From an uncultured Clostridia bacterium (GTDB lineage: Bacteria > Bacillota > Clostridia > TANB77 > CAG-508), in contig CALXCA010000002.1 in assembly GCA_944386685.1 (NCBI GenBank), positions 16,649 to 80,648 of the forward strand: a DNA stretch of 64,000 nt, in the 5' to 3' direction. Position numbers and translations under genes: made by a program. Of the stretch, positions 5,808 to 60,567 are shown piece after piece. Under the pieces are notes generated by a model. It ran no database searches. It saw only the letters and a program-made list of their open reading frames with translations, and had not been told where the DNA came from. Each line of letters opens with the position of its first letter. Position 1 is the first letter of the stretch.

Positions 5808-8216
5808 CTATATAACAACATTATAAATCTTATTTTTAACATAAATTTCTTTTTTAATATTTTTACCATCAATTTTATCTTGAATAGCAGTATGAACTTT
5901 TTCTTTAACACTTGCTTCATCTTCATCCAAATCTATCATAACAGTAGCTTTTAATTTTCCATTTACTTGAATAGGAATTTCTATTTGTTCATCAATAGTT
6001 TTAGATTCATCATAGATAGGCCATTTGCAAGATGAAATAGGTTCATCTTCAAAAACAATTTCATTTAATTCTTCTGTCATATGTGGTGCAAAAGGGTTAA
6101 GTAAAGTAATAAATGTTTTAAATTCTGCTTTATTTATTGTTTTTAATTTTGTAAATTCATTCATCATTGTCATAAAAGTAGATACACAAGTATTAAATTT
6201 CATATCTTCAATATCTTTAGAAACTTTTTTTATTGCTTTATTCATCATTTTTTCTGTTTCTTTTCTATATGTATCACCATCAATTAACATATTTTGTAAA
6301 TTCCAAACTCTATCTAAAAATTTAAAACATCCTCTAATACTATCCATAGACCAGTTTGCTGCTTGGTCAAAAGGTCCCATAAACATTTCATAAACTCTAA
6401 ATGTATCTGCTCCAAATTCATTTAAAATGTCTTCAGGATTAATTACATTTCCCTTAGATTTAGACATTTTTTCTCCATTAGAACCTAATATCATACCATG
6501 AGAAGTACGTTTTGCATAAGGTTCTTTAGTTGGAACAACTCCAATATCATATAAAAATTTATGCCAAAATCTTGAATATAATAAATGTAGAGTAGTGTGT
6601 TCCATTCCACCATTATACCAATCAACTGGAGACCAGTATTCTATTGCTTCTTTAGAGGCTAAAGCTTTATCATTATGTGGATCCATATATCTTAAATAAT
6701 ACCATGAAGATCCAGCCCATTGAGGCATTGTGTCTGTTTCTCTTTTTGCTGGTTTACCACAGTGTGGACATTTTGTATTAACCCATTCTGAATGTCTTGC
6801 AAGAGGTGATTCTCCATTTTCTCCTGGTAAGAAATCTTTAACATCTGGTAAAGTTAAAGGTAAATCTTTTTCATCAAGTGGAACCCATCCACAATCTTCA
6901 CAATATACCATAGGAATTGGCTCACCCCAGTATCTCTGGCGAGAAAATACCCAGTCGCGAAGTTTGTAATTTACTTTCTTTTCTCCAATTTTGTTTTCTT
7001 CAAGATATTCTATAACTTTTTTCTTTGCATCTTTAACATGTAGACCATTTAAAAAGTCAGAATTTATAGATATTCCTGTTTCAACATCAGTAAATGGGAA
7101 TTCTACAGATGAATTATCAACTGGTGCAACAACTTGAACTATTGGTAAATTAAATTTTGTTGCAAATTCATAATCTCTTGTATCATGTGCAGGAACAGCC
7201 ATAATAGCACCAGTTCCATAACTTGATAATACATAATCTGCAACCCAAATTGGAATTTCCTTTTTTGTTAAAGGATTAATTGCTTTTATACCTTTAATTT
7301 CTACACCTGTTTTATCTTTGTTCATTTCTCCACGTTCAAAGTCAGATTTTAAGGCAGATTGTTTTTGATAATTTTTTATTTCATCTAAATTTGTGATTTT
7401 ATTAGCAAGTTTTTCAATTAATTGATGCTCAGGTGCAATAACCATATATGTTGCACCAAAGATTGTATCTGGTCTTGTTGTATAAACAAGTAATTTTTCA
7501 TCAGTTCCAGAAATTTTGAATTTTACTTCAGCACCTTCTGAACGACCAATCCAATTACGTTGTTGAGTTTTTATTTTTTCTAAGAAATCAACATCATCTA
7601 AATCATCAATTAACCTTTGTGCATATTTTGTGATTTTTAACATCCATTGAGACTTTTCTTTTTGAATAACTGGACTTCCACATCTTTCACATACACCATT
7701 AACAACTTCTTCATTTGCTAAACCAACTTTACATCCTGTACAAAAATTTATTGGCATTGTTGCTTTATATGCTAAACCATGTTTATATAATTGTATAAAA
7801 ATCCATTGTGTCCATTTGTAATATTCTGGATCTGTTGTGTTTATAACTCTTGACCAATCAAATGAAAAACCTATTGATTTTAATTGTTCTGTAAAATGAG
7901 CAACATTTTTTTCTGTTGTGATTTTTGGATGTACATTTGTTTTTATTGCATAATTTTCTGCAGGTAATCCAAAAGCATCAAATCCAATAGGAAATAATAC
8001 ATTATATCCTTGTAATCTTCTTTTTCTTGCAATAACATCAAGTGCTGTGTAACTACGTGGATGCCCAACATGTAATCCTTGACCTGATGGATAAGGAAAT
8101 TCTATTAATCCATACCATTTCTTTTTATTTGTAAAATCATTACTTGCACAAAATGTGCCTTCTTTTTCCCATTTTTTTTGCCATTTTTGTTCTATTTCTT
8201 TAAAATTATATGCCAT
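5808..8216 (-). CDS. leuS: Leucyl-tRNA synthetase
   Basis: 802 aa with the HIGH motif (HVGHPRSY) and KMSKS (KMSKSKGN), plus the CP1 editing domain. Confidence 0.95.
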
Positions 8217-8406
8217 GATGACCTCCGTTCTAATTATTTATATTTTGCTTTTTGTACAATAACTAATCTATTATTAAATTTTAAAAAGTAGATTATAAGC
8301 TTATATAAATATATGAATTTATTTTAATATAAAAATTATACTAGCAAAATCCTTAAAAGTCAATGGAATGGAGAAATTTTATTAGTTATTAGCTAATGTT
8401 AAGTAG

Positions 8407-8607
8407 GAAATTTTGATATATTAATAATTGCATAAATTTTTCGACTCAATACGAAAATATAAGAATTTCTAAAATAATTTTATGGCGCCCTTTCACTTAG
8501 TCCTCGCTGCGCTCGACGCGAACATTTTCCATAAAATTAATTTAAGAAATTCTAAATTTCCTCCAATCGTATTCAAAATTTATTTATTATTAATATATCA
8601 AAATTTC
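8407..8607. repeat. 201-bp MITE-like element, copy A
   Basis: 20-bp perfect terminal inverted repeats (gaaattttgatatattaata ... tattaatatatcaaaatttc). The GC-rich core (ggcgccctttcacttagtcctcgctgcgctcgacgcgaacatt) is foreign to the AT-rich background. It is near-identical, in inverted orientation, to 21697-21897. Confidence 0.6.
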
Positions 8608-8761
8608 TTACCAAATTATAATAATGAGTATAGTTATTGGGAACAAAGACAAATATTAAAAAAATTTTTCAGTTATAAATATTACATAAAAGATGAAAAA
8701 TGAGAAATAATAAAATTGGTTCTATAAGAATTATAAAATAATGAAAGGAATGTGAGAAAAT

Positions 8762-8907: not shown

Positions 8908-9026
8908 TTTTGAGCGAAGCTCTTTTCCTGTATAGGAAAAACTTAAATTTTCCTATACAACAACAATAGCGGACTTTTTTTAGACATTTTATATGTTTAT
9001 AACATTTTAAAGTCCGCGTTATTGTT
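8908..9026. repeat. Mosaic intergenic hairpin-module repeat (family 2), minus-orientation copy
   Basis: Contains the modules gagcttcgctcaaa, tataggaaaa...ttttcctataca and gcggacttt...aaagtccgctattgtt, shared with 42935-43054 and 51862-52037. Confidence 0.5.
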
Positions 9027-9131
9027 CGTAAAGTTAATATAAAAAGAAAAAAATAAAAAAATTTTGAAAAAAAGAGGGAATTATGTAAAATACGTCGAAT
9101 AATATATATGTATGAAAAAGTAATATAGGAG

Positions 9132-20561: not shown

Positions 20562-21665
20562 ATGAAATTTAAAATGAAAATAGGAATAGTAGGTTTACCA
20601 AATGTAGGAAAAAGTACATTATTTAATAGTATAACAAAAGCAGGAGCAGAATGTGCTAATTATCCATTTTGTACAATAGAACCTAATGTTGGAGTTGTAG
20701 CAGTTCCAGATGAAAGAATAGATAATTTAGCCAAAATGTATAATCCTCAAAAAGTAACAAAAGCAGTAGTAGAATTTGTAGATATAGCAGGATTAGTTAA
20801 AGGAGCAAGTAAAGGAGAAGGATTAGGAAATAAATTCTTATCTCATATTCGTGAAGTTGATGCAATTGTCCAAGTTGTAAGATGTTTTGAAGACCCAAAT
20901 GTAGTACATGTTGATGGAAACATAAATCCATTAAGAGACATAGAAACAATAAATTTGGAATTAATATTTGCAGATTTAGAAACATTAGATAAAAGACTAG
21001 AAAAAGCAACAAAAAATTTAAAAGCAGATAAAAAATATCAATCAGAAATTGATTTAATAAAAAAAATAAAAGAAAACTTAAACAAAGGAATACCTGTTAG
21101 AACATTAGAATTTAATGAAGATGAACAAGAAATTTTAAAAGACATGTTTTTACTAACAGCAAAGCCAATTATATATATAGCAAACATTTCAGAAGAACAA
21201 ATATCAAATGCAGAAAATGAAGAAATGGTAAAACAAGTAAAAGAATATGCTGAAAAAGAAAATGCAGAAGTAATTCCATTATGTGTAAAAATAGAAGAAG
21301 AACTTTCTGGACTAGATGAACAAGATAAAAAAGAAATGTTAGAAGCATTAGGACTAGATGAATCTGGATTAGATAAGCTTATAAAGAAAAGTTATAGCTT
21401 ATTAGGTTTAATATCATTTTTAACAGCTGGAGAGCCAGAAGTTAGAGCATGGACAATAAAAAAAGGAACAAAAGCACCACAAGCAGCTGGTAAAATACAT
21501 TCAGATATTGAAAGAGGATTTATAAAGGCAGAAGTAATATCTTATGAAGATTTAATGAAATGTGGTTCAATGGTTTCTGCAAAAGAAAAAGGATTAGTTA
21601 GACAAGAGGGAAAAGACTATATAATGAAAGATGGAGATATTGTATTATTTAAATTTAATGTGTAA
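20562..21665 (+). CDS. ychF: Ribosome-binding ATPase YchF (Obg-like ATPase 1)
   Basis: GIVGLPNVGKSTLFN P-loop, a CTIEPN G2 region and the C-terminal TGS domain. The N-terminus is collinear with E. coli YchF. Confidence 0.9.
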   Translation: MKFKMKIGIVGLPNVGKSTLFNSITKAGAECANYPFCTIEPNVGVVAVPDERIDNLAKMYNPQKVTKAVVEFVDIAGLVKGASKGEGLGNKFLSHIREVDAIVQVVRCFEDPNVVHVDGNINPLRDIETINLELIFADLETLDKRLEKATKNLKADKKYQSEIDLIKKIKENLNKGIPVRTLEFNEDEQEILKDMFLLTAKPIIYIANISEEQISNAENEEMVKQVKEYAEKENAEVIPLCVKIEEELSGLDEQDKKEMLEALGLDESGLDKLIKKSYSLLGLISFLTAGEPEVRAWTIKKGTKAPQAAGKIHSDIERGFIKAEVISYEDLMKCGSMVSAKEKGLVRQEGKDYIMKDGDIVLFKFNV

Positions 21666-21696
21666 TTAACAACATATTAGCATTAGAGTTCAGTAA

Positions 21697-21897
21697 GAAA
21701 TTTTGATATATTAATAATAAATAAATTTTGAATACGATTGGAGGAAATTTAGAATTGCTTAAATAATTTTATGGAAAATGTTCGCGTCGAGCGTCAGCGA
21801 GGACTAAGTGAAAGGGTGCCATAAAATTATTTTAGAAATTCTTATATTTCCGTATTGAGTCGAAAAATTTATGCAATTATTAATATATCAAAATTTC
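21697..21897. repeat. 201-bp MITE-like element, copy B (inverted relative to copy A)
   Basis: Same 20-bp terminal inverted repeats as copy A. The internal sequence is the reverse complement of 8427-8587 with a few substitutions. Confidence 0.6.
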
Positions 21898-21942
21898 TCA
21901 ATGAACTATACCATATTATTATATAAGGAATGAGATTTAAAA

Positions 21943-22254: not shown

Positions 22255-22545
22255 ACTATAGTCTTTAGTTGTTACTGGATAAGGTTTTTTTAATTATTTC
22301 GTTAAAAGCGATGATATTATAATATTTTAAAGTTCTCCTGTTCATTCCATTCAAAAAGAATTCATAAGGCTTTTTCATGCGCCTCTTTCACTCCGACCCT
22401 CTCGTAAACTCGAGTACCGTGAACATTCCTCATGCAAAAGCCAAATGAATTCTAATTTTCATTTCAATCAAGCGTCGAAGCTTTAAAATATTATAATATC
22501 ATCGTTTCTGTATTTTATTTAAGACTATTATCCAGTATGTTAAAA
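22255..22545. repeat. Nested-palindrome element related to the MITE-like family
   Basis: Outer inverted repeat of about 65 bp with a 24-bp perfect core (cgatgatattataatattttaaag / ctttaaaatattataatatcatcg). Inner inverted repeat (agaattcat..ggctttt). The GC-rich core shares the ctttcact...gaacatt motif with 8470-8540. Confidence 0.45.
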
Positions 22546-28398: not shown

Positions 28399-28421
28399 TA
28401 TTAATTGCATTATTTTTTTAA

Positions 28422-28520
28422 TACTGTTCAACACTATTCAGAACTGTTCAACACTGTTCAACACTGTTCAGACTATTTGAACTGTTCAATACTGTTCAGA
28501 ACTGTTCAATACTGTTCAAT
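28422..28520. repeat. Tandem array of about nine 10-11-bp direct repeats, CTGTTCA(A/G)NA
   Basis: actgttcaaca / ctattcagaa / ctgttcaaca x2 / ctgttcagact / ...ctgttcaata / ctgttcagaa / ctgttcaata / ctgttcaatt. The period is about one helical turn, as in iterons. Confidence 0.7.
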
Positions 28521-42001: not shown

Positions 42002-42910
42002 ATGAATACAAATATAAATTTTGCCGGAATAGAAATGAAAAATCCAGTAACAGTAGCCTCAGGAACATTTGGATATGGTAGAGAATTTAGTAATTTCTTT
42101 GATTTAAGTAAATTAGGAGGAATAATAACAAAAGGAACATCACTAAAACCAAAAAGTGGAAACAAACCACCAAGAGTATGTGAAACAGCAAGTGGAATGT
42201 TAAATAGTATAGGACTTCAAAATCCAGGGGTAGAATATTTTGCACAAAATGACTTGCCATTTTTAAGAAAATTTGACACGGCAATAATAGTAAATGCCTG
42301 TGGAAGCACAATTGATGAATATGTTGAATTATGCAAAATTCTAAATACACTTGACATAGATGGAGTAGAATTAAACTTATCATGTCCTAATGTTAAAGCA
42401 GGATGTATGGCATTTGGAAATACATATGATGGAGTAAAAGAAATAACAAGCAAAGTTAGAAAAGTTTTACAAAAGCCACTTATAGTAAAATTAACACCAA
42501 ATGTAACAAATATTGCAGAAATAGCAAAAGCAGTGGAAGATGCAGGAGCTGATGGAGTATCATTAATAAATACATTACTTGGAATGAAAATTGATATTAA
42601 CAAAAGAAAACCAGTATTAGCAAATAATACAGGAGGACTTTCTGGTCCAGCAATAAAGCCAGTTGCTGTAAGAATGGTTTATCAAGTGGCTCAAGCTGTA
42701 AAAATACCAATTTTAGGAATGGGTGGAATTGTGAATGGCGAAGATGCAATAGAATTTATGCTAGCAGGAGCAAGTGCAATTTCTATTGGTGCAGGTAACT
42801 TTATTTCTCCTACTACTAGTATTGACACAATTTCTCAAATTGAAGATTATATGAGAAAAAATAATATTCAAGATATTAAGGAAATTGTTGGAAAAGTTGA
42901 GATGAACTAA
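42002..42910 (+). CDS. pyrD: Dihydroorotate dehydrogenase 1B catalytic subunit
   Basis: TIM-barrel DHODH motifs (NPVTVASGTFGYG; ELNLSCPN; GGLSGP; GMGGIVNGEDA). Confidence 0.9.
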   Translation: MNTNINFAGIEMKNPVTVASGTFGYGREFSNFFDLSKLGGIITKGTSLKPKSGNKPPRVCETASGMLNSIGLQNPGVEYFAQNDLPFLRKFDTAIIVNACGSTIDEYVELCKILNTLDIDGVELNLSCPNVKAGCMAFGNTYDGVKEITSKVRKVLQKPLIVKLTPNVTNIAEIAKAVEDAGADGVSLINTLLGMKIDINKRKPVLANNTGGLSGPAIKPVAVRMVYQVAQAVKIPILGMGGIVNGEDAIEFMLAGASAISIGAGNFISPTTSIDTISQIEDYMRKNNIQDIKEIVGKVEMN

Positions 42911-42934
42911 ATAAAACAATTTAAGATTCAATAA

Positions 42935-43054
42935 AAGAGCTTCGCTCAAACGGATGCACACAAATTTTACTATGTAAAATTTGGCACATGAACAATGACG
43001 CGGACTTTAAAATGTTATGAATATATAAAATGTCTAAAAAAGTCCGCTATTGTT
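42935..43054. repeat. Mosaic hairpin-module repeat (family 2) downstream of pyrD
   Basis: Modules aaagagcttcgctcaaacggatgcacacaaattttac-tatg-gtaaaatttggcac...aacaatgac and gcggacttt...aaagtccgctattgtt. Confidence 0.5.
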
Positions 43055-49496: not shown

Positions 49497-51860
49497 ATGA
49501 AATTAAGTACAAATTTTTTAAAAGACTATGTAGATATAGATGTAGATGTAAAACAACTAGCAGAAGACATGACAAGAGTTGGTAATGAATATGATTATGC
49601 TGGAAAATTAATAAATGCAACAAAACTTGTTATAGGAGAAATTGTAGAATGTGTTGACCACCCAGATTCAGACCATTTACACTTATGCAAAGTAAATATA
49701 GGAAAAGAAATTCTAAACATTGTATGTGGTGCACCAAATGCTAGAAAAGGAATCAAAGTAATTGTTGCATTAGATGGAGCAGAACTTCCAGGAAAAACAA
49801 TAAAAAAAGGAAGAATAAGAGGTCAAGAATCAAATGGAATGTTATGTTCAATTGCAGAACTAGGATTAGAACACAAATTCTTAAAACCAGAAGATTCAGC
49901 AGGAATAGCAGAATTAGGTCAAGATGCTAAAATTGGAGAAGACCCAATAAAATATCTTCAAATGGATGATGGAGTTATAGATTTTGAATTAACAGCAAAT
50001 AGAGGAGATTTACTAAGCATTTTAGGTATGGCTTATGAAGTAGGAGCAATATATGATAAACCAGTAAAAAAAGTAGATTTAGAACACAAAGAATCAGGAG
50101 AAGATATAAATAAACAATTTTCTATTGAAGTAAAAACAGAAAACTGTAAAAAACTATTAGTAAAAAAAGTGGAAAATGTAAAAATTGAAGAAAGCCCAAC
50201 ATTCATCAAAAATAGATTAATTGCATCTGGAATAAGACCTATAAACAATGTAGTAGATATTAGTAACTATGTAATGCTAGAATTAGGTCAACCTTTGCAC
50301 TTTTATGATGCAGACAGACTTGGAAATAAATTAGTTGTAAGAATGGCAGAAGAAGGAGAAAAACTTACAACACTTGACAATGTAGAAAGAACATTATCAG
50401 CAGAAGATATAGTAATTGCAGACAAAACTCATGGAGTAGGTCTAGCAGGAGTAATGGGAGGCCTAGAAACAGAAGTTGAACCAGACACAAAAAATATAAT
50501 TATAGAATCAGCAATATTTGATTCAGTAAAAATTAGAAAAACATCAAAAAAGATTTTAAGAAGTGAAGCAAGTAATAGATTTGAAAAGGGAATAGACCCA
50601 GAAAGAACAACAATGGCAATAGAAAGAGCTTGTAAACTATTAGAAGAATATGCTGGAGGAACTGTTGTAACAGGAACAGCTAAATATGATGTAACAAATA
50701 ACAAAGAAAAAGAAATTGATATCACATTCCAAGATGTAAATGATGTTTTAGGAACAGTTATACCAAATAAAGAAATATTAGAAGTATTTAGAAAACTAGG
50801 ATTTACATATAGCGTAAAAGGAGAAACAATAAAAGTAACAGTTCCAACAAGAAGATTAGATATATCAATAAAAGAAGACTTAATGGAAGAAGTAAGCAGA
50901 ATTTATGGAGTTGACAATATAGAAGGAAAACTACCAATAGTTCCAATGAGAAAAGGAAGTTATGATAAAACACAGAGAGAAATTAGAAATAGAATGATTG
51001 CTCTAGGATTACATGAAACATTATCATATATTTTAATAAATGATAAAGAAGTAAATAATTATACATTAGACGAATTTGAACCATTAAAATTATTAGACCC
51101 AATTACAGAAGACAGAAATACACTAAGATATAGTATGATTACATCATTATATAAAATATATGAATATAATAAATCTAGAGAACAAAAAGATATATCTATA
51201 TTTGAGATTGGAAAAGGATTTTATAAAAAAGGTGACAAATATGGAGAAGATACAAAACTATGTGCACTAATGACAGGAAAATATTCTTCAGGATTAAATA
51301 ATGTAAAAAATGTTGACTTTTATGTTATTAAAGGTGTTGTAGAAGAAATACTTGATTATCTTGGATATGCAGGAAGATATAGTTTTATAAGAAAAGAAAT
51401 GCCAAAAGAAATCCATCCAGGACAAAGTGCATATATAAATGTAAATGGAACAGATGTTGGAATTATAGGTAAAATTCATCCAAGCGTAACAAAAGATGAT
51501 GTATATGTATTTGAAATTAATTTAGACGAATTATTCCAAAAGAAAGTAGGAAAAATGAAATATAAAGAAATTTCAAAATATCCAAGTATAAACAAAGACA
51601 TAGCTCTAGTTGTAGACAAAGATGCTGTTTCACAAAATATTGAAAAAGTCATAAAATCAGCAGGAGGAAGTTTACTTACAAATATTGAGGTATTTGATGT
51701 ATACACTGGTATTGGAATAGGAGCAGATAAAAAATCTATAGCATATTCACTAACATTTTCAGACATGAAAAAAACATTAACAGACGAAGAAGTAAACAGT
51801 CTAATGGAAAAAATAATTGAAGCAACTTCAAAAAAATGCGGAGCAGAACTTAGAAAATAA
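49497..51860 (+). CDS. pheT: Phenylalanyl-tRNA synthetase beta subunit
   Basis: 787 aa with the tRNA-binding OB domain, B3/B4, B5 and the C-terminal FDX-ACB domain. Downstream of pheS. Confidence 0.95.
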   Translation: MKLSTNFLKDYVDIDVDVKQLAEDMTRVGNEYDYAGKLINATKLVIGEIVECVDHPDSDHLHLCKVNIGKEILNIVCGAPNARKGIKVIVALDGAELPGKTIKKGRIRGQESNGMLCSIAELGLEHKFLKPEDSAGIAELGQDAKIGEDPIKYLQMDDGVIDFELTANRGDLLSILGMAYEVGAIYDKPVKKVDLEHKESGEDINKQFSIEVKTENCKKLLVKKVENVKIEESPTFIKNRLIASGIRPINNVVDISNYVMLELGQPLHFYDADRLGNKLVVRMAEEGEKLTTLDNVERTLSAEDIVIADKTHGVGLAGVMGGLETEVEPDTKNIIIESAIFDSVKIRKTSKKILRSEASNRFEKGIDPERTTMAIERACKLLEEYAGGTVVTGTAKYDVTNNKEKEIDITFQDVNDVLGTVIPNKEILEVFRKLGFTYSVKGETIKVTVPTRRLDISIKEDLMEEVSRIYGVDNIEGKLPIVPMRKGSYDKTQREIRNRMIALGLHETLSYILINDKEVNNYTLDEFEPLKLLDPITEDRNTLRYSMITSLYKIYEYNKSREQKDISIFEIGKGFYKKGDKYGEDTKLCALMTGKYSSGLNNVKNVDFYVIKGVVEEILDYLGYAGRYSFIRKEMPKEIHPGQSAYINVNGTDVGIIGKIHPSVTKDDVYVFEINLDELFQKKVGKMKYKEISKYPSINKDIALVVDKDAVSQNIEKVIKSAGGSLLTNIEVFDVYTGIGIGADKKSIAYSLTFSDMKKTLTDEEVNSLMEKIIEATSKKCGAELRK

Positions 51861-51861
51861 T

Positions 51862-52037
51862 GTCAATTGTCAATGGGGACGGAGATTTTGACAACTTTCA
51901 TTCTTGTATAGGAAAAATCAATTTTTCCTATACAAGAACAGAGCTTTGCTCAAACAGATGCACACAATTTTACTTCGTAAAATTGGCACGCGAACAATGA
52001 CTTGGACTTTAAATGTCTAAAAAAGTCCGCTATTGTT
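51862..52037. repeat. Mosaic hairpin-module repeat (family 2), the most complete copy
   Basis: gtcaatggggacggagattttgacaac + tgtataggaaaaatcaatttttcctataca + gagctttgctcaaacagatgcacacaattttac-ttcg-gtaaaattggcac...aacaatgac + ggactttaaatgtctaaaaaagtccgctattgtt. Confidence 0.55.
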
Positions 52038-52068: not shown

Positions 52069-53118
52069 ATGGAGAAAATAAATGAATTAATAGACAAAAT
52101 ACAAGCAAAAAATTTAACAGATATAGCAATAGCTGTGGCAATAGTTGTAATATTTTTTATAATGAGTTCATGGCTTCCTAAAATTATTATGAGAATGTTT
52201 AAAATAAAAGAAAAAAGCAAGAAGAAACTAAAAGAAAATGATATGTATAAAGGGTTAAAAGGCTTATTTTTATGTGCAGGATTTTACTTAGCAATATTAG
52301 TTTTAAATCTATCAGAAAATGTATTTTCTATATGCTTAAAAATAATAAGAGTAATTGTTATTTTAAGTATTGCAAAAATATTAATTGGAATAATATCACC
52401 AGAATCTAAATTAATGAAGAAGGTTCAAGAAAACGATAAATTTCAAGAGAATAAATCTGCTTTAAATGTTGGATTTAAAATTGTAAAAGTAATAATTTAT
52501 GTTATAGCTGGATTTTTAATTATAGCAGATTTTGGATATGATTTAAATGGAATAATTACTGGACTAGGATTAGGAAGTGTTGTTATAGGTCTAGCTGCAC
52601 AAGAATTAGTAAGTAATTTACTTAGTGGTATGGCAATATCTTCAGAAAAACCATTTAAAATCGGAGATTGGGTAACTATAGGAACAGTTTCTGGTACTGT
52701 TGTTGATATAAAATTTAGAAGTATAAAAGTTAAAACAGCAGATAATACAACAGTTACAATATTAAATACAAAGGTATTAAATGAATCAATTATAAATTAT
52801 GCAACAATTGATTCGAGAAGATTTGAAGTAATTTTAAGATTGCCATTAAATACTTCAAGCTATCAAATAGAAGACTTAATGAATTCATTAAAAAACTTTT
52901 TACATAGTATTAAAGAAGCTGACCAAGATACGATTCAAGTTTTTATTGATGGAATTCAAACAGATGCAATAGTTGTAAAAACAATTGTATATGTAAATAT
53001 TGACGCAACATATTTCTTGAATTTTAAAACAGAAACTAATTTAGGTATTATGAAGATTTTAGAAAGCAAAGGAATAAAACTAGCAAATCCAAGTACAGAT
53101 GTGTATTTAAATAGGTAA
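52069..53118 (+). CDS. mscS: Small-conductance mechanosensitive channel (MscS family)
   Basis: Three TM helices then the MscS beta-domain signature (LSGMAISSEKPFKIGDWVTIGTVSGTVVDIKFRSIKVKTADNTTVTILN). Confidence 0.8.
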   Translation: MEKINELIDKIQAKNLTDIAIAVAIVVIFFIMSSWLPKIIMRMFKIKEKSKKKLKENDMYKGLKGLFLCAGFYLAILVLNLSENVFSICLKIIRVIVILSIAKILIGIISPESKLMKKVQENDKFQENKSALNVGFKIVKVIIYVIAGFLIIADFGYDLNGIITGLGLGSVVIGLAAQELVSNLLSGMAISSEKPFKIGDWVTIGTVSGTVVDIKFRSIKVKTADNTTVTILNTKVLNESIINYATIDSRRFEVILRLPLNTSSYQIEDLMNSLKNFLHSIKEADQDTIQVFIDGIQTDAIVVKTIVYVNIDATYFLNFKTETNLGIMKILESKGIKLANPSTDVYLNR

Positions 53119-53317
53119 AAAAAGTGCCGGTTCTATTTTTTCCCTTTTTTTACTGGGGTCGATCCCTTTTTTGACTGGGGTCGATCCCTTTTTTGACTGG
53201 GGTCGGTCCCTTTTTTGACTGGGGTCGGTCCCTTTTTTAATTGGGGTCGGTCCCTTTTTTGATTGAGGACCGACCCCAGTATAACAAAGGAAAAAAATAG
53301 AACCGGCACTTTTTTTA
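53118..53317. repeat. Tandem array of six 22-bp units (cccttttttgactggggtcggt) flanked by an inverted repeat
   Basis: Left inverted repeat aaaaagtgccggttctattttttcc (53118-53143). Right inverted repeat ggaaaaaaatagaaccggcacttttt (53289-53317). Six units; the last is inverted (ggaccgacccc) and forms an 11-bp GC hairpin with unit 5. The flank motif recurs at 37349-37369. Confidence 0.75.
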
Positions 53318-53465
53318 CCCTTTTTTATAAAATATAATGAAATAAAAAATTGTTTATGATAAAATAAAAAAGACAAAGTATATTATTTAATTTTTTTGAT
53401 AAAGAAATTTTCTAAAGATTCAGAAAAAACATGAAAAATAATAACTTTTATAGGAGAACAAAAAG

Positions 53466-60299: not shown

Positions 60300-60494
60300 A
60301 TGAAAATTATAGACAAAATTGCTTTATTATTAATAATTATAGGTGCTATAAATTGGGGATTAATTGGAATATTTAATTTCAATTTAGTAGACACAATTTT
60401 TGGAACAATGTCTGTGATAAGTAGAATAATTTATATATTAGTAGGAATTGCAGGCCTATGGGGAATAAAACTACTTTTTGATAATAATGATTAG
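60300..60494 (+). CDS. DUF378-type small membrane protein (64 aa)
   Basis: Two TM helices, IGAINWGLIGIFNFNLV...ILVGIAGLWGI. Confidence 0.55.
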   Translation: MKIIDKIALLLIIIGAINWGLIGIFNFNLVDTIFGTMSVISRIIYILVGIAGLWGIKLLFDNND

Positions 60495-60495
60495 T

Positions 60496-60567
60496 GTCAA
60501 TGGGGACGGAGATTTTGACAACTTGTTTATTATAAAAGTTGTCAAAATCTCCGTCCCCATTGACAAC
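60496..60567. terminator. Perfect 27-bp-stem hairpin (family 2 module) acting as a terminator
   Basis: gtcaatggggacggagattttgacaac-ttgtttattataaaa-gttgtcaaaatctccgtccccattgac. One arm is identical to the module at 51862-51888. Confidence 0.6.

Follow-up and report, generated by a model that had tools for sequence, protein, structure and literature searches.

The window, by which we mean the whole 64,000-nucleotide stretch of DNA that was analyzed, comes from an uncultured Clostridia bacterium and carries two copies of one repeat, here called copies A and B. Copy A lies upstream of a reverse-strand gene (5808 to 8216) encoding leucyl-tRNA synthetase-type Pfam domains (leuS), and copy B begins 16 bp past the stop codon of a gene (20562 to 21665) identified by Pfam as YchF, in agreement with the neighbors named in the original prediction. 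The ychF open reading frame is 367 aa long, and its true start gives a 363-aa protein. As had been proposed, the two stretches are nearly identical in opposite orientation: 8407 to 8607 on the forward strand and 21697 to 21897 on the reverse strand differ by three substitutions and two single-base indels, similarity ends within a few bases on each side, and the flanks are unrelated. An exact search of the window for the 20-mer GAAATTTTGATATATTAATA gave four matches, one at each of the four element ends, and shuffled sequence gave a chance expectation of 0.35 matches with three mismatches allowed. Among promoter-like sites upstream of leuS, the best one (TTGACT, 17 nt, TATAAT; 11 of 12 positions) is found at 8335 to 8363 on the reverse strand, just outside copy A, and was left intact by the insertion.

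The element had been described as 201 bp long with perfect terminal inverted repeats of 20 bp. Both copies and their repeats are real, but the perfect repeat measures 22 bp and the inverted repeat continues outward for about 15 bp more in most copies (for example, GTTCCAGTTCAGTAG/GAAATTTT...AAAATTTC/CTACTGAACTGGAAC), giving a total terminal inverted repeat of about 37 bp and a true size of 231 to 240 bp. We define repeats of this layout as type 1: an outer repeat of about 15 bp that starts with GTT and ends with AAC, a 22-bp perfect inner repeat, and, inside the inner repeats, arms of about 60 bp that are imperfectly complementary and enclose a G+C-rich apex of about 47 bp. Type-1 ends start with GTT[A/C]C and contain TTGATATATTAATAAT. 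The complete copy A occupies 8391 to 8630 on the forward strand (240 bp). Decay has affected part of its outer arms, of which the right one exceeds its counterparts in other copies by 7 to 9 bp. The left inner arm of copy A, GAAATTTTGATATATTAATAAT (8407 to 8428, forward strand), is perfectly complementary to the right inner arm (8586 to 8607, forward strand), and the apex lies at 8482 to 8528 on the same strand. The G+C-rich core noted earlier was borne out, with 55% G+C in the apex, 26% in the window, and 18% in the arms. The complete copy B occupies 21681 to 21911 on the reverse strand (231 bp). Type-1 elements are 231 to 233 bp long apart from copy A and, together with a type-2 copy of about 269 bp described below, fall under the MITE limit of about 500 bp.

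Inspection of the flanks, which the original prediction had proposed as a check, revealed AT-rich 8-bp direct repeats directly outside the ends. Copy A is flanked on the left by TAGTTATT at 8383 to 8390 and on the right by the identical 8-mer at 8631 to 8638, and copy B is flanked by CATATTAG at 21673 to 21680 and CATATTAT at 21912 to 21919, which match at seven of eight positions. When the element ends were set at GTT.../...AAC, eight of the 12 copies scored had left and right 8-mers that agreed at 8, 8, 7, 7, 7, 6, 6, and 6 of the 8 positions, and a boundary shift of at most 2 bp raised two further copies to 8 of 8. Flanks paired across copies as a control matched on average at 2.8 of 8 positions, and just 4.5% reached 6. 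The idea that the outer 15-bp arms are a preexisting palindromic target, such as a terminator or REP-like sequence, was rejected: GTTCAGT...ACTGAAC never occurred without the inner element in about 260 kb, and the duplications lie outside the outer arms. We conclude that the outer arms are part of the element, because they were never found apart from it, and that the 8-bp duplications point to staggered double-strand cutting.

A genome-wide count of the terminal repeat was obtained by scanning for the 20-mer in one genome per species for 185,579 species. The scan returned 34 stretches, 23 of them in the single MAG BRZ_HA__bin44, of an uncultured Clostridia bacterium, and one in a second Clostridia MAG, with single chance matches making up the remainder; exact matches in Barnesiella, Oscillospiraceae, archaea, and others were likewise rejected as single chance matches in G+C-rich DNA. 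The window is 97 to 99% identical to BRZ_HA__bin44 over the regions available and therefore belongs to the same species, for which the MAG is the representative genome. BLAST comparison of the BRZ_HA__bin44 loci gave 13 full type-1 copies and about 17 deleted, truncated, or contig-end pieces, among them three internally deleted derivatives (114, 91, and 63 bp) and five truncated ends. All insertions are intergenic at AT-rich sites, mostly 0 to 32 bp past a stop codon, with a 7:6 split in orientation relative to the upstream gene. The ortholog of copy A in this MAG (locus L025) is 100% identical, and all 10 strain contigs compared carried copy A. Where loci seemed alike over a longer stretch, the match was discarded as noise from AT-rich flanks.

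Two observations concern other genomes. Positions 121 to 203 of locus L023, from MAG BRZ_PM__bin58 of another Clostridia species, hold a core-less version of about 85 bp (CAGAAATTTGATATATTAATATTT...AATATTAATATATCAAAATTTCT), and thus the family reaches beyond one species. Separately, loci L002, L005, and L019, labeled Clostridiales, Oscillospiraceae, and Barnesiella intestinihominis, have 3 to 4.8 kb of G+C-rich sequence in common at 85 to 89% identity, which suggests either misbinning or a mobile region that they share and which is unrelated to the element.

Orthologous sites in sister lineages were empty in three cases. In a sister lineage with a 94%-identical YchF, the gap between ychF and the DUF1294 gene measures 23 bp as opposed to 277 bp and holds no family member, and the next gap measures 120 bp as opposed to 488 bp, also with no family member. 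A relative with a 95%-identical SigK has no element after sigK, where BRZ_HA__bin44 has a copy. Inside the species, no filled/empty polymorphism was seen, as every strain contig that was examined had its copy A or B in place, and a search for an empty site by way of the SigK gene beside an L001 copy matched only relatives at 95% identity or less.

The difference between the 120- and 488-bp gaps led to a third family member, at 22271 to 22539 on the forward strand (about 269 bp; ends approximate). The element had been reported as present twice in the window, which holds for type 1 but overlooked this diverged copy, here called type 2. Its inner inverted repeat (22306 to 22332 and 22481 to 22507) has arms that differ from those of type 1, its terminal sequences are TACTGGATAA and TTATCCAGTA, and no clear target-site duplication was found around it. 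The G+C-rich core of the type-2 element (22378 to 22432; CCTCTTTCACTCCGACCCTC...GTACCGTGAACAT) is clearly homologous to the type-1 core, including that of copy A, and as DNA the element folds into a hairpin with a z score of −7.35. Two more type-2 copies occur among the BRZ_HA__bin44 loci, together with a hybrid that has type-1-like arms and a type-2-like core. The apex is thus common to type-1, type-2, and hybrid elements despite diverged arms, and it keeps 53 to 55% G+C in a genome of 26% G+C. Within type-2 cores, a small apical hairpin comes in two forms with compensating changes, CTCG/CGAG and CTCAC/GTGAG. A search with a hidden Markov model did not turn up any core standing apart from a foldback element.

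The window also contains other repeats. A second repeat family (8909 to 9027, and on the reverse strand 42909 to 43041 and 51913 to 51954) adjoins copy A and is found upstream of dnaG. Its two hairpin modules are TTTGAGCGAAGCTC...CCTGTATAGGAAAA...TTTTCCTATACA and GCGGACTTT...AAAGTCCGC, and the 52-nt module is 94% matched between two sites. Six to seven tandem 22-bp units (TCCCTTTTTTGACTGGGGTCGA) at 53104 to 53329 sit within a 47-nt inverted repeat that is 87% complementary, and the last unit of this array pairs with GGACCGACCCCAG. At 28413 to 28519, at least six copies of a 10-bp tandem unit (ACTGTTCAAC and variants) resemble an array of protein-binding sites. Finally, the 35-nt palindromic motif TGTCAATGGGGACGGAGATTTTGACAAC occurs three times at 51850 to 51901 and 60477 to 60566, one occurrence being a near-perfect inverted pair 1 nt apart, and may be an operator or another small repeat.

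The original prediction had left a choice between a nonautonomous transposable element and a structured RNA family. The roughly 30 dispersed copies, the 8-bp duplications, the empty sister sites, and the lack of coding capacity support the first choice, a nonautonomous transposable element (MITE). As stated earlier, it encodes no transposase. For the 73-aa open reading frame inside copy A (8482 to 8703), its lack of conservation in copy B had been held against a coding function, and this argument stands: the frame runs out of the copy, no open reading frame of at least 60 aa overlaps copy B, and 1-nt length polymorphisms between copies leave no conserved open reading frame in the region. We conclude that the type-1 and type-2 repeats are very probably a foldback MITE family of uncultured gut Clostridia that is mobilized in trans.

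The source of mobility was sought within and beyond the species. A search of about 190 kb of MAG loci, of the window, and of plasmids, phages, and metagenome contigs gave no autonomous insertion sequence that has such ends, and the MAG loci contained no repeated segment longer than the element. Phage and plasmid collections gave no relatives by BLAST, with chance-level AT-rich matches only, two viral scans were empty, and a metagenome scan returned single chance matches only. Three candidate parents were rejected. In locus L010, unrelated DNA breaks off a copy at position 43, and in L026 the paired matches are a deletion derivative of 91 bp and a truncated end around ordinary genes. Locus L011, in which terminal-repeat matches lie 4.6 kb apart, resolves into a mini derivative, a tRNA gene, an island, and a separate truncated copy. 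More precisely, positions 727 to 5338 of L011 (CALXHG010000014.1) comprise a 63-bp mini derivative, the tRNA gene, and an island of about 4.3 kb that ends at the truncated element copy; among the open reading frames of the island are one with a putative radical-SAM-like CxxxCxxC motif and one of 315 aa without an assigned function. One possible reading is that an island linked to the tRNA gene broke up a copy here.

These features suggest the following course. A transposase encoded elsewhere would move the element in trans, cutting AT-rich intergenic DNA with an 8-bp stagger, typically just past stop codons, and so producing the 8-bp duplications. Once inserted, the copies behave like other long palindromes. 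The interior flips between the 22-bp repeats, and the arms stay matched, presumably through arm-to-arm recombination or template switching, through a requirement for end pairing, or through both. The center is deleted when slippage occurs between short direct repeats that lie at the base of the hairpin, and copies act as substrates for rearrangement and break short-read assemblies.

The suggestion that the element can form a stem proved correct on a larger scale, as the whole element folds into one long imperfect hairpin with z scores of −8.55 on the forward strand and −8.31 on the reverse strand. RNAalifold predicted 80 pairs. The proposed covariance check was run on 14 copies: 94.8% of cells were paired, and 26 of 86 pairs changed on both sides. 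Shuffles gave 10.8 ± 2.1 such double-sided changes (none of 500 reached 26), and slid controls gave at most 14. The changes were concentrated at the ends, with 17 of the 26 double-changed pairs in the outer helix, which has 37 pairs. Consistent with this, the outer 15 bp were only 51 to 53% identical between copies (67 to 70% among the 10 closest copies) and all other segments were 93 to 99% identical, yet the outer arms within one copy complemented each other, and in six copies they did so at 14 of 14 positions. In the hybrid, diverged copy L001b, the inner stems were kept through nine further double changes. Ends that vary between copies yet match within a copy are unusual for classical transposons, which have conserved ends. 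The duplications beside the arms are well kept, and therefore the variation between copies either dates largely from the time of insertion or was later transferred from arm to arm. We conclude that inversion in place, as a route of arm correction, is most likely the cause of the matched ends and that a requirement for end pairing during transposition is a possible one.

One way in which the ends could be free in sequence and yet matched is if the element is mobilized as a folded single strand, that is, as a DNA hairpin moved in the manner proposed for REPINs, by a RAYT/HUH enzyme, with selection favoring end pairing whatever the sequence of the ends. The covariation of the outer 15 bp, the full complementarity of six copies, and the preserved inner stems of L001b would all follow, and REPINs have the same hairpin conservation (PMC3116915). 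The 8-bp target-site duplications, however, indicate staggered double-strand cuts, and the arm matching can also come from the in-place inversions described below. Moreover, pairing is not maximized along the stem, because every copy retains identical mismatches in its inner arms. We consider mobilization of this kind quite improbable. A narrower form, in which the outer 15 bp may vary but must pair as a need of transposition and the inner 200 bp are nearly constant, would combine folded single-strand movement with 8-bp duplications and is itself improbable; we know of no description of that combination for bacterial MITEs. If the folded-strand reading were true, the conserved G+C-rich apex would be a recognition or nucleation site.

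Another possibility is that the apex is the functional part and that transposition only spreads it, either as a family of small structured RNA genes or as a cis-acting RNA hairpin that serves as a terminator or mRNA stabilizer. Such a role could account for the persistence of the G+C-rich apex in types whose arms have diverged, for the compensating apical hairpins of type-2 cores, and for the position of most copies directly past stop codons. It could also account for a strand bias in folding energy, since one strand folds better by 10 to 16 kcal/mol in 10 of 11 members and by 3.4 kcal/mol in the eleventh. The RNA option nevertheless went unsupported. Rfam identified two tRNAs as its only matches in the window, and within the element its best match was pntA at 25.8 bits (E = 0.057), far below the gathering threshold of 54. 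Promoter-like sites were at least as frequent in shuffles as in the element, in which no terminator-like site turned up either. Furthermore, the 7:6 orientation split and the flipping of the interior speak against a strand-specific role, the core was lost at the ychF site of the MAG with no other visible change, and no core was found standing free of the foldback element. We conclude that an RNA function as the reason for the family is very unlikely.

Comparison of strains indicated that the interior of a resident copy can invert. At the ychF site, the interior was opposite in four independent assemblies (L038, L057, L058, and L059) with identical flanks, and 15 contigs and the window had the usual orientation. 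In the inverted allele, CATTGA replaces CAGTAA in the left outer arm, so that this arm now complements the right arm exactly. All four inverted (+) alleles share substitutions (cattga and TTACATAAA) that are absent from the 15 contigs in the usual (−) orientation and from the window, and these private substitutions indicate one inherited event rather than frequent switching. At the leuS site, copy A was inverted in one strain, L098, between its left and right inner repeats, which thus bound the flipping segment. That strain keeps the copy-A-specific variants GGCGCC and GCTGCGC, and the inversion therefore arose by flipping of the interior already present, not by a second insertion.

Both orientations among strains at both type-1 loci of the window, with a 22-bp perfect inverted repeat bounding the flipped segment, are what would be expected if the elements were dispersed invertible switches (invertons) turned by a site-specific recombinase to control neighboring genes. 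The single inherited event at ychF argues against this, as do the target-site duplications, which show arrival by transposition, and the type-2 copy, which was unflipped in eight strains. Promoter-like sites were not enriched, and the best internal one matched 9 of 12 positions. Moreover, the passage of PMC10969869 that cites inversion of Correia elements reports it with no dedicated switch function. A switch is thus extremely unlikely. Last, the notion that copies A and B are alike by chance or as part of a segmental duplication, under which the original prediction held that only two copies would exist and the terminal repeats would be incidental, is dismissed, because the flanks are unrelated throughout, about 30 copies and fragments are present in the genome, and the 20-mer has a low chance expectation.

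Returning to a MITE family mobilized in trans, several loci show how its copies decay. Long palindromes are unstable: the center is lost between short direct repeats, the spacer inverts, and one arm is corrected from the other. At the ychF site of the MAG (locus L021), the core was deleted between two GAAATT direct repeats at the hairpin base, and other deletion derivatives are similar. Strain contigs L055 and L056 run from the ychF element into other genes, a YitT-type membrane protein and a short-chain dehydrogenase, respectively, and these junctions are either rearrangements or chimeric assemblies at the repeat. Small variants inside orthologous copies often equal those of other copies, which could be due to gene conversion or to mixing by the assembler; recovery of copy-A-specific variants in nine independent assemblies counts against pure assembler mixing.

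The family has practical and biological consequences. It explains assembly breaks of the species, as nine BRZ_HA__bin44 contigs end inside the element, and it may explain apparent rearrangements beside ychF. Copies are useful strain markers in that their orientation and deletion state vary by strain. Copies lie inside operons and directly past genes, where the hairpin of about 100 bp could affect transcript stability or termination. More broadly, a MITE family whose ends are exactly placed, and which has an 8-bp duplication, two subfamilies, and a series of decay stages, has been defined in poorly studied, AT-rich, uncultured gut Clostridia, and the matched variation of its ends together with in-place inversion provides a natural data set on the concerted evolution of long inverted repeats.

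Several insertion sequence families make 8-bp duplications. Among these, the IS6/IS26 family and longer clostridial IS6-like elements (ISCpe7, ISCbo1, and others) do so, terminal repeats reach about 30 bp in some clostridial members, and the family end consensus GGTTCTGTTGCAAA starts with GG (PMC6807381). The present element shares the duplication length, and its GTTCCAGTTCAGT loosely resembles GGTTCTGTTGCAAA; unlike that consensus, its ends begin GTT[C/A]C with no GG, and the consensus G at position 7 is not at the matching place. IS6/IS26 is thus a lead only as a candidate parent.

The element also shares features with known hairpin-forming repeats. REPINs comprise two G+C-rich REP sequences and need a single-copy HUH-type gene, and to our knowledge neither REPINs nor IS200/IS605-type elements make target-site duplications. 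The present element is AT-rich, has an 8-bp duplication, and resembles REPINs in forming a hairpin with conserved half-to-half pairing, and no RAYT-like gene was noticed. REPINs are nonautonomous repeats in which the pairing of the halves is conserved (PMC3116915). Long DNA palindromes and quasi-palindromes behave like the element in three respects, and these are general behaviors of DNA rather than properties of an element family.

The closest parallels are with other bacterial MITEs. Correia elements of Neisseria (CREE/NEMIS) are 100 to 155 bp long, with 26-bp repeats, a TA duplication, an IHF site, and promoters. Like them, the present element is a short, noncoding, intergenic MITE with terminal inverted repeats and many copies; unlike them, it measures 231 to 233 bp, has an 8-bp duplication and a G+C-rich apex, and shows no similarity by eye. 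The resemblance extends to a long hairpin, internally deleted variants, and inversion in place, which, as the citing passage of PMC10969869 has it, was already reported for Correia elements (Elbeyioglu et al. 2017). QMITE2 of Coxiella burnetii has direct repeats of 7 to 9 bp, terminal repeats of 23 to 29 bp, and a core of 113 to 145 bp, and its transcript is predicted to fold into a highly stable hairpin (PMC10969869, Figure 2 legend); by this description its architecture is very close to that of the present element, in an unrelated host. Apart from an autonomous partner, which the searches above did not find, all the structural features given for prokaryotic MITEs in section 2.1 of PMC10969869 are present here. 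We conclude that the repeats are a new MITE family and an element of a known kind, rather than a new system.
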